From: a virus
Lineage: Duplodnaviria > Heunggongvirae > Uroviricota > Caudoviricetes
Virus record (IMG/VR): IMGVR_UViG_2671180360_000002
DNA: 23,431 bases
Direction: 5' to 3' (one strand)
In this document: positions 20,565 to 23,431 of the stretch, one piece after another
Layout: each line of letters starts with the position of its first letter
How positions within the stretch are numbered: the first letter of the stretch is position 1
The notes under the pieces: generated by a model
What the model was told of the DNA's origin: nothing
Databases searched by the model: none
Seen by the model: only the letters and a program-made list of their open reading frames with translations
Program-made: the position numbers and the translations under genes

Positions 20565-21037
20565 ATATCGGCCTCATCACAACAGTCAATGACTGCCTTT
20601 TCCAGTGTATCGCGGATCTCATCAACCACAATCTGTACTTCATTCAGTTGTGATGCGGTCCACCCCCTGTCCCTCTCCAGCCGGTCAGGCCAGGTTTCCA
20701 GTACCTGAACTATCGCTTTCACCACGACAGAAAAGGACCGCCTGACATCACTGACTGGCACAAGCTGAACAGTTTCATGCTGAAATTTAAGACGCTCGCG
20801 CTCGGACTGATACCATGCCTTCCGATCATGTGGGTTCATCTCTTCATCTTCGGAAGCCGGTGGTTTTTCCAGCAACGAAATAATCAAATCCGTCAGGAGA
20901 TACATTTTTTTCTTTTCATTACTGCCTGGTGCAAGAGGAACATCCGCCATTCTGGCGGCAACAGTCTGCCGGTGCAGACCTGAAAGGGCTGCCAGTTGAT
21001 TAATATTTAACTTCATATTTTTCAGCTCGCCGTCCAT
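20561..21037 (-). CDS. Terminase small subunit (Nu1-like, HTH DNA-binding)
   Basis: A 158-aa ORF with ATG at 21037 preceded by GGAGGG and a 6-nt spacer. The N-terminal segment NINQLAALSGLHRQTVAARMA looks like a helix-turn-helix. It lies immediately upstream of the large terminase gene and about 200 bp downstream of the putative cosN. Confidence 0.8.
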   Translation of the reverse strand: MDGELKNMKLNINQLAALSGLHRQTVAARMADVPLAPGSNEKKKMYLLTDLIISLLEKPPASEDEEMNPHDRKAWYQSERERLKFQHETVQLVPVSDVRRSFSVVVKAIVQVLETWPDRLERDRGWTASQLNEVQIVVDEIRDTLEKAVIDCCDEADM

Positions 21038-21039
21038 TC

Positions 21040-21300
21040 ACATCCCTCCACATAAACCGCTGAACAAAAGTGGCTCTTTTTTTGTAAAGAAATGCCGCCA
21101 TATAAAGATGTCGAACAAAAATCAACCACAATCATCATCTTTTTAATGTTAAACACATTAAAAACAACAAGTTATGCTAATGATGATGATGACGATAAAA
21201 TCACAAAAATGCGCCTTTTTCCGCGCCGTCCGCCCCGTGTTCAGGCCCACCCCACCAGGAGGACCCGCAAAAATGATAATGGTTATCATTTTCAATGTAG
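21040..21300 (-). other. Putative cos region (cosN-like G-rich motif, candidate terminase-binding repeats, AT-rich segment)
   Basis: A non-coding region between Rz and the small terminase gene. The minus strand reads ACGGGGCGGACGGCGCGG (plus 21221-21238), whose first nine bases match the lambda cos junction ACGGGGCGG..., about 190-200 bp upstream of the small terminase start, as in lambda. Inverted ATCATCATC / GATGATGAT copies lie at 21131-21139 and 21182-21190. Confidence 0.45.
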
Positions 21301-21489
21301 TCCGGTTTCTTCCACCATCGCACCGGACAGGCGACTATGAGGGGACAACGCCGCGCTCCGTTAACGCGGTAAACCCCGGTGTGTATCGTTTTTGATTATC
21401 CCCGCACACTCGCGCAGAGGAGTCTCCCTGTCGGGCTGCGGTCTCTGTTAATGAGGGAATACAGCGACGATACGGCGCATCAACAAAAC

Positions 21490-21957
21490 TTATTTCAGGC
21501 ACTGAGTACGGATATATTCCTGCGCCCCTTCCAGTTGCTTGTGCATCGTCATCAGCCGCTCTCTGAGGGTGAAATAATCCCGTTCAGCGGTGTCTGCCAG
21601 TCGGGGGCCGGTTGCATTATCCACGCGGGCGGTGCCGGTGGCTTCACGCACGGGACCTGGACAGGTGGCGTTGATACGCAGGCGCTTACGACCAGCGGCA
21701 ACGTCAGCGCGAAGAGTTTCATTTTCAGCTCTCGCATCGGCTAATTCCCTCGAGTATTTTGCATCGAGCGCAGCAACATCACGCTGACGCATCTGCATGT
21801 CAGTAATTGCCGCGTTCGCCAGCTTCAGTTCTCTGACATTTTTGTCGCGCTGGGCTTTGTAGGTAATGGCGTTATCACGGTAATGATTCAGCCCCAGACT
21901 AAGCGCACCACAGGCCACCAGCATGACAATAATCACCACACACAGAACACGGTTCAT
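21490..21957 (-). CDS. Rz: Rz i-spanin
   Basis: From ATG 21957-21955: [68 protein letters not shown]..., a strong match to lambda Rz as recalled. The track ORF extends upstream from a GTG; the ATG is preferred. Confidence 0.93.
21552..21737 (-). CDS. Rz1: Rz1 o-spanin (lipoprotein, embedded in Rz in the +1 frame)
   Basis: The 61-aa translation [61 protein letters not shown] has a lipobox VSAC and a Pro-rich body, matching lambda Rz1 as recalled. It is fully embedded within Rz. Confidence 0.9.
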
Positions 21958-22056
21958 ATCACCACCAACGGATTGCCCAGACCAGAACAGCAATGGCCAC
22001 AATACGAATGGCAAATGCCATTGCCCGAATAAGTTCAGCACTCATCTTTTTAAAGT

Positions 22057-22328
22057 TCACGATTTCAGCGCAATGACCAGTTTTGCCAGCCCATATAGCA
22101 TCGGAGACACAGCAATACCAACAGCCACCCACTTAATAGCAAAAGCCACCCACTTAATAGCAAAAGCCAGCGCTCTGCTGATGTCATCAGTCACTGTCAC
22201 CCCAGCAGCCCCGACGAAGACAACATCACCCAGGCGAGGGACAGAAAAAGAGCAACCAGCATTAGTGAAAATGAAATACCGACAATCACACACAGGACCT
22301 TTGCCGGCGTTATGAGTTTGTCTGACAT
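22057..22328 (-). pseudogene. Small two-TMD membrane protein gene with an apparent frameshift (43-aa N-terminal ORF plus an out-of-frame C-terminal extension)
   Basis: ATG at 22328-22326, preceded by AAGGGG, encodes MSDKLITPAKVLCVIVGISFSLMLVALFLSLAWVMLSSSGLLG, stopping at TGA 22199-22197 inside a G-run. The overlapping +1 frame continues ...VTVTDDISRALAFAIKWVAFAIKWVAVGIAVSPMLYGLAKLVIALKS to TGA 22059-22057. One extra G in the run would join them into an approximately 90-aa protein. Confidence 0.35.
22124..22170. repeat. 21-bp perfect tandem duplication (about 2.2 copies) inside the small membrane ORF
   Basis: GCCACCCACTTAATAGCAAAA occurs at 22124-22144 and again at 22145-22165, followed by a partial GCCAG. 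In the minus-strand reading frame this duplicates the heptapeptide AFAIKWV. Confidence 0.9.
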
Positions 22329-22330
22329 AG

Positions 22331-22426
22331 CTACCCCTTAATTGCCACAATTAACTGGGATACTACCCATAAAAAAGGGATGCTCCAGACCAGCAAAAAT
22401 TTCCAGTTTGGTAATTGACTAATCAT
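22331..22426 (-). CDS. Possible 31-aa hydrophobic peptide ORF
   Basis: ATG at 22426-22424, preceded by GGGAG with a 9-nt spacer, encodes MISQLPNWKFLLVWSIPFLWVVSQLIVAIKG and stops at TAG 2 nt before the next ATG. It is very short and unverified. Confidence 0.2.
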   Translation of the reverse strand: MISQLPNWKFLLVWSIPFLWVVSQLIVAIKG

Positions 22427-22493
22427 GAGTCGCAACTCCCTAATCAGTTTGCTAAAATCAATCAAGGCAGCCTCCCATAGCTTACTGCCATAA

Positions 22494-22534
22494 AAACAAA
22501 ACCCCGCTTGCTGCCAACAAACGGGGTTTTTACT
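22494..22534. terminator. Bidirectional rho-independent terminator-like hairpin downstream of the endolysin gene
   Basis: AAAACCCCG...CGGGGTTTT stem (22498-22506 pairing with 22522-22530) with T-rich tracts on both strands (plus TTTTTACTTTTATT; minus TTTTGTTTTTATGG). It lies about 90 nt after the endolysin stop. Confidence 0.5.
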
Positions 22535-22620
22535 TTTATTCACTTACGTTTCGCCAGTTCGCAGGATTTCGTGTTATCCGCCCGCGTGGCCATGCCTTAT
22601 TTTTCAGCAAAATATTCTGC

Positions 22621-23154
22621 TTATCTGTCGATACCCCAGCACGCCAGCGCGCTCTCCTGGTCACGACGGGATACCTGACCGTAGCAGTTGTTTGAACGAA
22701 TACGGCAGTCTCTGCCACCGTCCTTAATCCACCAGCGAATCGCCTCACACGCTCCCCTGCGATCACCTGCATTAATTCGTTTATAAAACGTCGACGGGAA
22801 ACACTTACCGGGACCAATGTTGTACGGACAGAATGACGCGATCCCCGCTTTCTGGGGTTCGCTCAATGGCACTTTGATGTTTTTCTCCACCCATGCCAGC
22901 GCCTTATCACGCTCAATGGCGTTGACCTGGTCGCATTTTTCCTTCGACAGTTTCATACCGGGAAAAACGGGTTTTCCATCCACCATCGTGGCCCCCCGAC
23001 AGATGGTCCAGATGCCGGAACCATCGCGGTATGCCGTAGTGTGGTTACCCTCTTTTTCATCCAGAAACTGGTCGAGAATATCAGGCGCGGGCGCACCGAC
23101 GGCAATCAGTGCCAGAACGGCAGCCGACAGGCCGTATCTGATTTTTGCGTTCAT
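22621..23154 (-). CDS. R: Endolysin, T4-lysozyme-like with N-terminal signal-anchor-release (SAR) segment
   Basis: The 177-aa translation MNAKIRYGLSAAVLALIAVGAPAPDILDQFLDEKEGNHTTAYRDGSGIWTICRGATMVDG... has a weakly hydrophobic Gly/Ala-rich N-terminus (SAR-like) followed by a lysozyme-type catalytic region (E...D...T spacing). It lies upstream of Rz/Rz1. Confidence 0.88.
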   Translation of the reverse strand: MNAKIRYGLSAAVLALIAVGAPAPDILDQFLDEKEGNHTTAYRDGSGIWTICRGATMVDGKPVFPGMKLSKEKCDQVNAIERDKALAWVEKNIKVPLSEPQKAGIASFCPYNIGPGKCFPSTFYKRINAGDRRGACEAIRWWIKDGGRDCRIRSNNCYGQVSRRDQESALACWGIDR

Positions 23155-23217
23155 GGATATTTATCAGGATTTATCGGTTTCTGCCCACGGACAGGTTTAT
23201 CTGTTCTGGTCAGTGAC

Positions 23218-23431
23218 TTAAGGTTGTGATTCCGGAGGAGTCTTCAGAGAACCAGTAATTCTTCCTGGTAGCTTTCCTTTGTAGGTTATCCACACATTCT
23301 GCGCCTCTAAAATTACGGGGCACTTTTCCGGCGACTGCTCATCCCCTTCACATAACCCGGCAGCAACATCCAGGAAGACCTGTCTGATGCTCCTTCTGGC
23401 TGCTGCCTCATAAAACTCCAGCGCGGCACCT
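23218..23431 (-). CDS. Partial ORF (3' end only; start beyond the window), soluble hypothetical protein upstream of the endolysin
   Basis: An open frame runs in from the window edge and ends at TAA 23220-23218: ...GAALEFYEAAARRSIRQVFLDVAAGLCEGDEQSPEKCPVILEAQNVWITYKGKLPGRITGSLKTPPESQP. It has no transmembrane character, so it is not a holin. Confidence 0.4.
   Translation of the reverse strand, partial: GAALEFYEAAARRSIRQVFLDVAAGLCEGDEQSPEKCPVILEAQNVWITYKGKLPGRITGSLKTPPESQP

Follow-up and report, generated by a model that had tools for sequence, protein, structure and literature searches.

A hairpin-led, recombination-shuffled array of four membrane mini-genes between the endolysin and spanin genes of a lambdoid prophage

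Small accessory lysis proteins with a single transmembrane domain (TMD) have precedents in the releasin gp25 of phage Mu and in Lcc6 of the Shewanella lambdoid phage LambdaSo. Mu gp25 is a membrane-anchored DUF2730 protein of 99 residues, with an N-out/C-in topology and a 73-residue acidic cytoplasmic domain, which is encoded within a few genes of an endolysin of the signal-anchor-release (SAR) type, whose release from the membrane it controls (PMC9239132). Lcc6 is a small single-TMD protein of no known family that has a 43-residue cytoplasmic tail and is not lethal alone; its gene lies far away from those for lysis, and the protein acts with a pinholin/SAR-endolysin/two-component-spanin system in which it is strictly required for lysis (bioRxiv 10.1101/2024.01.23.576932). 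Herein we describe four small genes in a stretch of 23,431 nucleotides (hereafter the window; IMG/VR record IMGVR_UViG_2671180360_000002, Caudoviricetes), which is the late region of a lambdoid E. coli prophage and in which a 663-bp interval (21958-22620) between the endolysin gene R and the spanin gene Rz carries the open reading frames (ORFs) that we term ORF-A, ORF-B, ORF-C' and ORF-D. Their products and those of their relatives resemble Mu gp25 as predicted membrane-anchored, putatively accessory proteins encoded near a SAR endolysin gene, but they differ from it in having no DUF2730 match, the opposite predicted topology and no soluble domain, and in that the genes also follow non-SAR endolysins of the GH19 and GH108 types. 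Lcc6 is the nearest functional precedent, and the mini-proteins differ from it in being only 28-60 residues long, encoded inside the lysis cassette and dispensable for the phage type.

What the interval holds is an array, led by a hairpin and shuffled by recombination, of four distinct mini-genes: A, B, a truncated C (C') and D. All genes of the region lie on the minus strand, where, from the high-coordinate end, the lysis genes are followed by terminase and then by head and tail genes, and on that strand the interval runs from the 3' flank of R through the hairpin, ORF-A, ORF-B, ORF-C' and ORF-D to Rz. Two nucleotides separate A from B, the stop of B and the start of C' overlap in GTGA, 11 nt (14 nt with the stop codon) lie between C' and D, and the stop of D is 1 nt from the Rz ATG. 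The GC content of the interval is 0.46, against 0.55 for the window, 0.54 for R and 0.55 for Rz, and a value as low as this occurs in just 2.9% of same-size segments. In the DLP12 and Qin prophages of E. coli K-12 the lysozyme gene abuts Rz without any intervening stretch, and the interval is therefore an insertion relative to them. A sequence-only reading of the window had described an AT-rich insertion of about 660 bp at what in lambda is a direct R-Rz junction, holding small hydrophobic ORFs with ribosome-binding sites, and this description holds: the quoted ORFs are present and encode single-TMD peptides.

The array begins with a non-coding 3' flank of R of about 90 nt (22531-22620; GC 0.44) that is kept across E. 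coli architectures, where comparison revealed no conserved start codon. It runs up to a G+C-rich hairpin on the minus strand (22498-22530) that resembles an intrinsic terminator, with 15 pairs, an A-run before and a T-run after. The terminator-like hairpin was correctly recognized at first reading, and its A/T runs do flank both sides; the sense RNA is clearly more stable (-23.4 kcal/mol, z = -5.4 versus shuffles) than the antisense RNA (-14.8 kcal/mol) because of G.U pairs, and the sense strand is the stronger in 78 of 96 loci. These 96 are the retrieved loci with a recognizable first mini-gene, and every one of them has a stable hairpin upstream of that gene (at or below -12 kcal/mol in 95), and the distance between the start codon and a 45-nt analysis window centered on the hairpin region is mostly 27-36 nt, four loci having 53 nt. 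The loci span four unrelated types of lysis cassette as well as three structural-gene sites, and in a cross-genus 13-bp consensus stem four pairs are preserved via compensatory changes. A 70-residue ORF has been called through the hairpin in public annotation (WP_001043230.1), and in one phage record it carries the label 'TPR_REGION domain'.

The modular nature of the array is seen in the arrangements of its parts, which we mapped in 80 viral contigs carrying a free-standing C and in the other retrieved loci. The commonest order is R-hairpin-C-B-Rz (69 of the 80 contigs), while the window has R-hairpin-A-B-C'-D-Rz and other loci show R-hairpin-C-B-C'-D-Rz and R-hairpin-C-D-Rz; Salmonella provides R-hairpin-C-Rz and, in phage SPN3UB, R-hairpin-A-Rz, and phages that encode Shiga toxin 2 (Stx2) have R-hairpin-ant-B-Rz. 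Of 5426 complete E. coli genomes, 2121 (∼39%) have some version of the cassette, 2068 have parts of the R-Rz interval, 989 have the commonest alternative arrangement in complete form and 587 have the whole arrangement of the window; the interval is likewise found in phages that convert to Stx1 or Stx2 production and in those of Salmonella. Scans of species-representative genomes with a protein pattern and with an exact DNA word were both empty; the element varies from strain to strain, and the representatives lack it. In RefSeq the short ORFs are again kept separate and are labelled as hypothetical proteins. Public annotation of the interval is otherwise inconsistent (retrieved loci L001, 2793-3141; L002, 1578-2141; L003, 612-1077), and some records leave it unannotated.

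The setting of the mini-genes also recurs, in that they stand directly after the endolysin gene, and before a spanin or small lipoprotein gene, in four unrelated cassette types. These comprise an R21-like SAR lysozyme accompanied by a class II holin, a Salmonella lysozyme of 161 residues with holin_2_3, a GH19 endolysin that lacks a SAR segment with holin_3_7 (joined by holin_8 in two of its three loci), and a GH108 endolysin with the same holins as the GH19 type. Neither the GH19 nor the GH108 enzymes have an N-terminal hydrophobic segment, and because the same mini-genes follow them there is no specific link to SAR endolysins, contrary to one role that had been suggested for these ORFs. Where a window-type Rz is absent (L006, 2794-2991; L012, 2916-3191), the mini-genes are followed by the gene of a small lipoprotein whose signal peptide ends in LLVGC or FLVSC; the mature part in L006 has 30 residues and contains cysteine, the protein has no Pfam match, and a part in the spanin or in exclusion is conceivable for it.

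That these are real genes follows from how their codons vary. The ratio of non-synonymous to synonymous variation (pN/pS) was computed in each proposed frame and, for control, in the two shifted ones, and frame-specific purifying selection acts on A, C and D and on B over its first 26 codons. The four ORFs are real genes, neither a degenerate holin nor a sequencing error. By hydropathy each mini-protein has one hydrophobic segment in a chain of 28-60 residues, the best 19-residue Kyte-Doolittle windows scoring 1.9-2.9, and the set includes the conserved motifs AFAI(K/R) and IDFSKLIRELR. Full-length A and C have a short net-basic N-terminal segment or flank, which suggests an N-in/C-out orientation. 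A similarity of the mini-proteins to the SAR segment of the endolysin was also considered and was not significant; the marginal value for C (p 0.034) is not trusted.

ORF-A (22331-22465; 44 residues) starts at TTG 22465 behind the Shine-Dalgarno (SD) sequence GGGAGG (22471-22476) and encodes an amphipathic, net-basic N-terminal segment followed by a 20-residue TMD. The start is set here because MIDFSKLIRELR opens the homologues known from five further genera (Salmonella, Citrobacter, Enterobacter, Klebsiella and Providencia); homologues are 44-50 residues long, with 45 in most other genera. The ORF of 31 residues reported earlier for this position begins at an internal GGGAG-N9-ATG (22424-22426), downstream of the true start. 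In cross-genus comparison, pN/pS is 0.38 in frame versus ∼1.0-1.6 off frame for the N-terminal segment, and 0.41 versus 0.7-2.0 for the TMD. The first 66 nt of ORF-A (22400-22465) show 86% DNA identity across genera (L099, L101-L105) versus 54% for the TMD-coding part, together with low synonymous divergence (pS 0.28 vs. 0.82) and a conserved internal GGGAG-N9-ATG, and this conservation could arise from dual starts, from an RNA-level constraint or from a recent exchange of segments. In some R-Rz loci that bear ant or methylase genes the head of ORF-A is replaced. Alignment of the N-terminal segments (z 3.05, p 0.013) hints that A and C may be distantly related.

ORF-B (22197-22328) starts with ATG, its SD sequence AAGGGG lies inside the last codons of A, and its 43-residue product (WP_001280935.1) has a single TMD whose topology is predicted from charge to be N-in/C-out. 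Codons 2-26 have a pN/pS of 0.29 in frame versus ∼0.8 off frame, while codons 27-43 are relaxed (0.62 in frame versus 0.59 and 1.57). The 43-residue form is intact in 72 of 80 copies, and a test of ORF preservation was not significant (P = 0.16). Two other interpretations of this part of the interval were rejected. A duplication of the Rz membrane anchor, prompted by a shared VLCV..MLVA and the word CTGTGTGTG, gave an alignment that did not outscore shuffled sequences (z 1.96, p 0.056). The other was that Rz or C' extends N-terminally through an open alternative frame over B or D; this frame has pN/pS values of 1.2 (B) and 0.8 (D), and the in-frame relation to Rz is lost in junctions of the L049 type. 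The Rz frame is in fact open upstream to GTG 22041, giving a 183-residue ORF that overlaps ORF-D in a different frame (21958-22041) and that is probably an artefact able to mislead gene callers.

ORF-C' (22057-22200; 47 residues) and ORF-D (21959-22045; 28 residues, ending in RWW; WP_032140280.1) are by alignment members of one family, both of them 5'-truncated in the window, as judged from the C versus D alignment (z = 6.2), from bridging homologues that join the head of C to the helix and RWW end of D (P0141, P0144, P0145 and P0139) and from a common AFAI(K/R) core. Full-length C has about 60 residues, its own ATG and SD sequence and a head, M-x-KYKRILLRLT-MKNGLELKAP, that is conserved in E. 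coli, in Salmonella and in one more distant member, and as a free-standing gene it lies mostly upstream of B. ORF-C' has neither this head nor an SD sequence of its own, and its GTG start overlaps the B stop, but from VTDD onward it is identical to free-standing C. Where C and C' occur within one locus (L080), seven synonymous changes and a single conservative one set them apart, and since nearly all are synonymous the truncated copy is still under constraint at the protein level. Residues 11-48 of C have a pN/pS of 0.14 in frame versus 0.74 and 8.5 off frame, with 10/3/25 variable sites by codon position, and the corresponding values for D are 0.34 versus 0.80 and 2.3, with 7/1/9. The peptide quoted for D in the sequence-only reading has 28 residues and not the 31 given there. 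Gene callers have placed C' as a 51-residue ORF having a 37-nt overlap with B (WP_042004856.1), or else as one of 38 residues from a later GTG. A C/D-family profile searched against 1.84 billion representatives gave just 19 hits, all of them short and enterobacterial in type, and no link to a known family.

Within ORF-C' lies a 21-bp tandem duplication (22114-22169; 2.7 copies, 94% match, TRF score 98) that repeats AFAIKWV in frame and that had escaped the earlier description. It is private to the window: its junction is absent from IMG/VR and from complete E. coli genomes, in which the best matches to the 663-bp interval are 642 bp and otherwise identical. The duplication is flanked by GCT(T/G)TTG microhomology and falls inside the AFAI(K/R) core, which is also a place of recombination in family members.

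Family searches gave little beyond these relationships. Neither the single products (A, B, C, C' and D) nor the B+C' fusion had a Pfam match (E <= 1-10), and there was no NCBIfam match for the mini-proteins and no PADLOC defense-system match at E <= 1, so that none of the holin/antiholin, LysA-like or type-I-toxin identities put forward for these ORFs found a matching family in those three resources. Matches were obtained to PHROG families 6632 (A), 4906 (B; 5e-21) and 1115/3246/4493 (C' and D), with E-values between 1e-12 and 1e-24 except for D, at 4e-06, and all five families are labelled 'unknown function.' Like lambda S105/S107 and phage 21 S68/S71, which are also small membrane proteins of lysis cassettes with two starts, A and full-length C each have two candidate starts, the second an internal SD sequence and ATG 12-13 codons past the first, and the longer form adds basic residues. 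However, holins of these two types have two or three TMDs and starts only two or three codons apart, holins in general have two or three TMDs or one TMD with a large periplasmic domain in contrast to the single TMD and 28-60 residues found here, no mini-protein matches a holin family, and relatives already have a class II holin gene upstream.

We propose that the mini-genes encode dispensable, late-expressed single-pass inner-membrane proteins that modulate membrane steps of lysis, a tentative reading drawn from genomic position only and to which we assign a probability of roughly 0.4-0.45. The main argument in its favor is that the mini-genes recur after four unrelated types of endolysin. Late in infection the proteins would enter the inner membrane in an N-in/C-out orientation and would serve as auxiliaries that tune the timing or sharpness of holin triggering, the release of endolysin or the activation of the spanin, and they would not themselves form the lethal hole. 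Late expression is in keeping with the signals around the array. No sigma-70-like promoter, sense or antisense, is common to the loci compared (the window, L101, L104, L105 and L029), an intrinsic-terminator-like hairpin stands in front of the genes and a Q-type antiterminator is encoded upstream of the cassette in relatives, and for these reasons the mini-genes and Rz are probably reached only by Q-antiterminated late transcription, alongside the lysis genes. The first three mini-genes are probably read by translational coupling. Weak terminator-like sites inside C' and D were dismissed as within chance (4 found versus 1.8 +/- 1.4 expected). A bolder form of the proposal, which we regard as unlikely, is that the mini-genes are a mobile class of lysis 'micro-regulators,' with long and short forms from dual starts that set holin firing or spanin action.

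Several observations weigh against a role in lysis. The mini-proteins have no homology to any characterized protein in Pfam, NCBIfam or PADLOC, and searches by accession, by peptide string and of the broader literature retrieved no expression data or papers on the mini-genes; a survey of Stx-phage lysis cassettes makes no mention of these ORFs, and the supplements of a small-gene Ribo-seq study of strain Sakai contain none of their sequences. The hairpin and A also occur as a unit in Citrobacter, where tail genes I and J flank it and a lipoprotein gene is its neighbor, and in the baseplate cluster of a Klebsiella myophage, and C and D come after a structural gene in L012. Phages with the same endolysin and Rz types exist without mini-genes (DLP12 and Qin), and the mini-genes are dispensable for the phage type; their copy number varies from one to four, two of the four copies in the window are 5'-truncated, 8 of 80 copies of ORF-B have a frameshifted tail and the ribosome-binding site of ORF-D is weak. 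The R-Rz interval furthermore carries cargo unrelated to lysis, namely Ant antirepressors and a DNA methylase, and may on that account be a mere tolerated site of insertion. In relatives this larger cargo (L009, 2801-3736; L098, 1775-2344; L100, 1090-1785; L096, 790-1485) takes the form of an N6/N4 DNA methylase between B and Rz or of Ant/KilAC antirepressors after the hairpin, and the interval is a general insertion hotspot.

The most serious alternative, close behind a part in lysis in plausibility, is that the mini-genes are mobile accessory genes, morons with a non-lysis role, such as superinfection exclusion or a block of DNA entry at the inner membrane, counter-defense or lysogen fitness, that ride in tolerated gaps of the late operon. 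Many known exclusion proteins are small inner-membrane proteins. Like lambda bor and lom and the small inner-membrane exclusion proteins of the HK97 type, the mini-genes are extra genes inserted between conserved late genes that are adjacent in relatives, their GC content is lower than that of the flanks, their products are small and envelope-targeted, and their presence is patchy, as they are absent from DLP12 and Qin yet widespread in E. coli. The placement of one cassette at unrelated late-operon sites, in lysis cassettes, in an I-J tail-gene moron island and in a baseplate cluster, and the sharing of the R-Rz interval with ant and methylase genes, point in the same direction. Classic morons, however, have their own promoter and a downstream terminator, whereas here there is no conserved promoter, no terminator before Rz and a hairpin that is upstream and not downstream, because of which expression in the lysogen is not expected. 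In addition, a moron role is at odds with the lack of any PADLOC match and with the strong enrichment of the mini-genes directly after endolysins of four unrelated types.

A rather improbable possibility is that the products have no function, the ORFs being either translated spacers that bring Rz its ribosomes and ribosome-binding site or neutral passengers that linkage maintains. The ORF that precedes Rz does provide its SD sequence, as GGGGTGA where this is B or as GGTGGTGA in the last codons of D and of RWW-ending forms of A, and the truncated copies and the relaxed tail of B would be expected of such spacers. Nevertheless, lambda-type phages express Rz without such ORFs, as the comparison with DLP12 and Qin indicates, and a spacer would not account for purifying selection on the amino acids of A, C, D and the head of B, which extends across genera and paralogous copies, or for the conserved motifs of the mini-proteins.

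We consider it very improbable that the mini-genes are type-I-toxin-like membrane peptides, controlled by an antisense RNA ending at the two-sided hairpin, which act as addiction or abortive-infection modules. Type I toxins such as Hok, TisB, Ibs, Ldr and ShoB are likewise hydrophobic one-TMD peptides, of 20-60 residues, the hairpin has T-runs on both strands, and the low pS in the first 66 nt of A could reflect a target of RNA-RNA pairing. The sole antisense promoter-like site is at 22322-22351 on the plus strand (CTGACA-18-CACAAT, with TG before it), where it overlaps the start codon of ORF-B, on which it depends and which other A contexts lack, and is directed toward A and the hairpin. Such sites are at chance level (1 found versus 1.6 +/- 1.6 expected), there is none in the other ORF-A contexts (L101, L104, L105 and L029), and the hairpin favors the sense strand. 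An Rfam search of 21300-23431 gave no family at E <= 1, Pfam and NCBIfam gave no match to known toxin families (Hok, Ldr, TisB, Ibs, Fst and others), and the mini-genes are several tandem genes coupled to Rz inside an operon, unlike free-standing type I loci. None of the four roles offered in the sequence-only reading gained positive evidence, and for the type-I-toxin role there is no conserved promoter on either strand.

The same reading had noted that one extra G in the G-run at the end of ORF-B would fuse it with the next frame, and we confirm that this gives a 90-residue ORF with two TMDs, although the run is four bases at 22200-22203 and not the stretch of 22197-22205. The fusion is a coincidence of two adjacent genes, because B and C are independent modules that occur in either order, the GGGGTGA end of B is the same whether Rz or C' follows, and fused B-C' proteins in databases are seven singletons (P0001-P0007, each with one member sequence on one or two contigs) that have at least three different shift points, none at the G-run. 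The split form, by comparison, is present in 587 complete E. coli genomes, and relatives revealed no intact, conserved fused orthologue. It is therefore highly improbable that B+C' is the decaying remnant of a displaced two-TMD holin or antiholin, or is rejoined when ribosomes slip by -1 at G GGG UGA in a programmed way: all 17 unique variants of B do have an open -1 frame, and P-site slippage at GGG-UGA may be possible in principle, but that frame has a pN/pS of 1.2, B keeps its ending where it abuts Rz directly, C is found free-standing with its own start signals, the fusion matches no holin family, and the B/C' boundary is a recombination joint that removed the first ten codons of C.

The genes that bound the interval are of well-defined types. 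R (22621-23154) encodes a SAR-type endolysin of 177 residues that matches PF00959 at 2e-24 and the structures of R21 (3hde/3hdf) and RrrD (4zpu), has a weakly hydrophobic N-terminus like that of the phage 21 SAR endolysin and is 92-93% identical to Stx-phage lysozymes. Downstream, Rz (21490-21957; PF03245 at 2e-51) encodes the i-spanin and has the o-spanin gene Rz1 embedded in it (21552-21737; PF06085 at 4e-21). The window ends (23155-23431) before any holin gene; in relatives (L001, 488-1966) a class II holin gene, a gene or fragment of the YdfR family (DUF1327) and an opposite-strand ORF of 104 residues separate the late promoter side from the lysozyme gene, and the lysis cassette is therefore interrupted on that side too. 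Between Rz/Rz1 and the DUF1441 and terminase genes there is a non-coding spacer of about 450 bp (21038-21489), with a GC content of 0.33-0.39 around 21000-21300, and its position directly upstream of the terminase genes suggests a cos/packaging site.

Our analysis resolves a set of overlapping ORF calls into four defined genes, all annotated "hypothetical," with corrected starts, evidence of selection and a shared hairpin-plus-gene unit. Some version of this cassette is carried by ∼39% of complete E. coli genomes, and it is found in Stx1 and Stx2 phages, in which the timing of lysis governs the release of toxin. If the mini-genes are exchangeable micro-regulators, temperate enterobacterial phages, the Stx phages included, would swap them and in this way retune lysis timing, burst size and toxin release. 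Should the mini-genes tune lysis, they would add a new layer to the holin-endolysin-spanin scheme, and should they not, they would provide a clean example of mini-gene morons.

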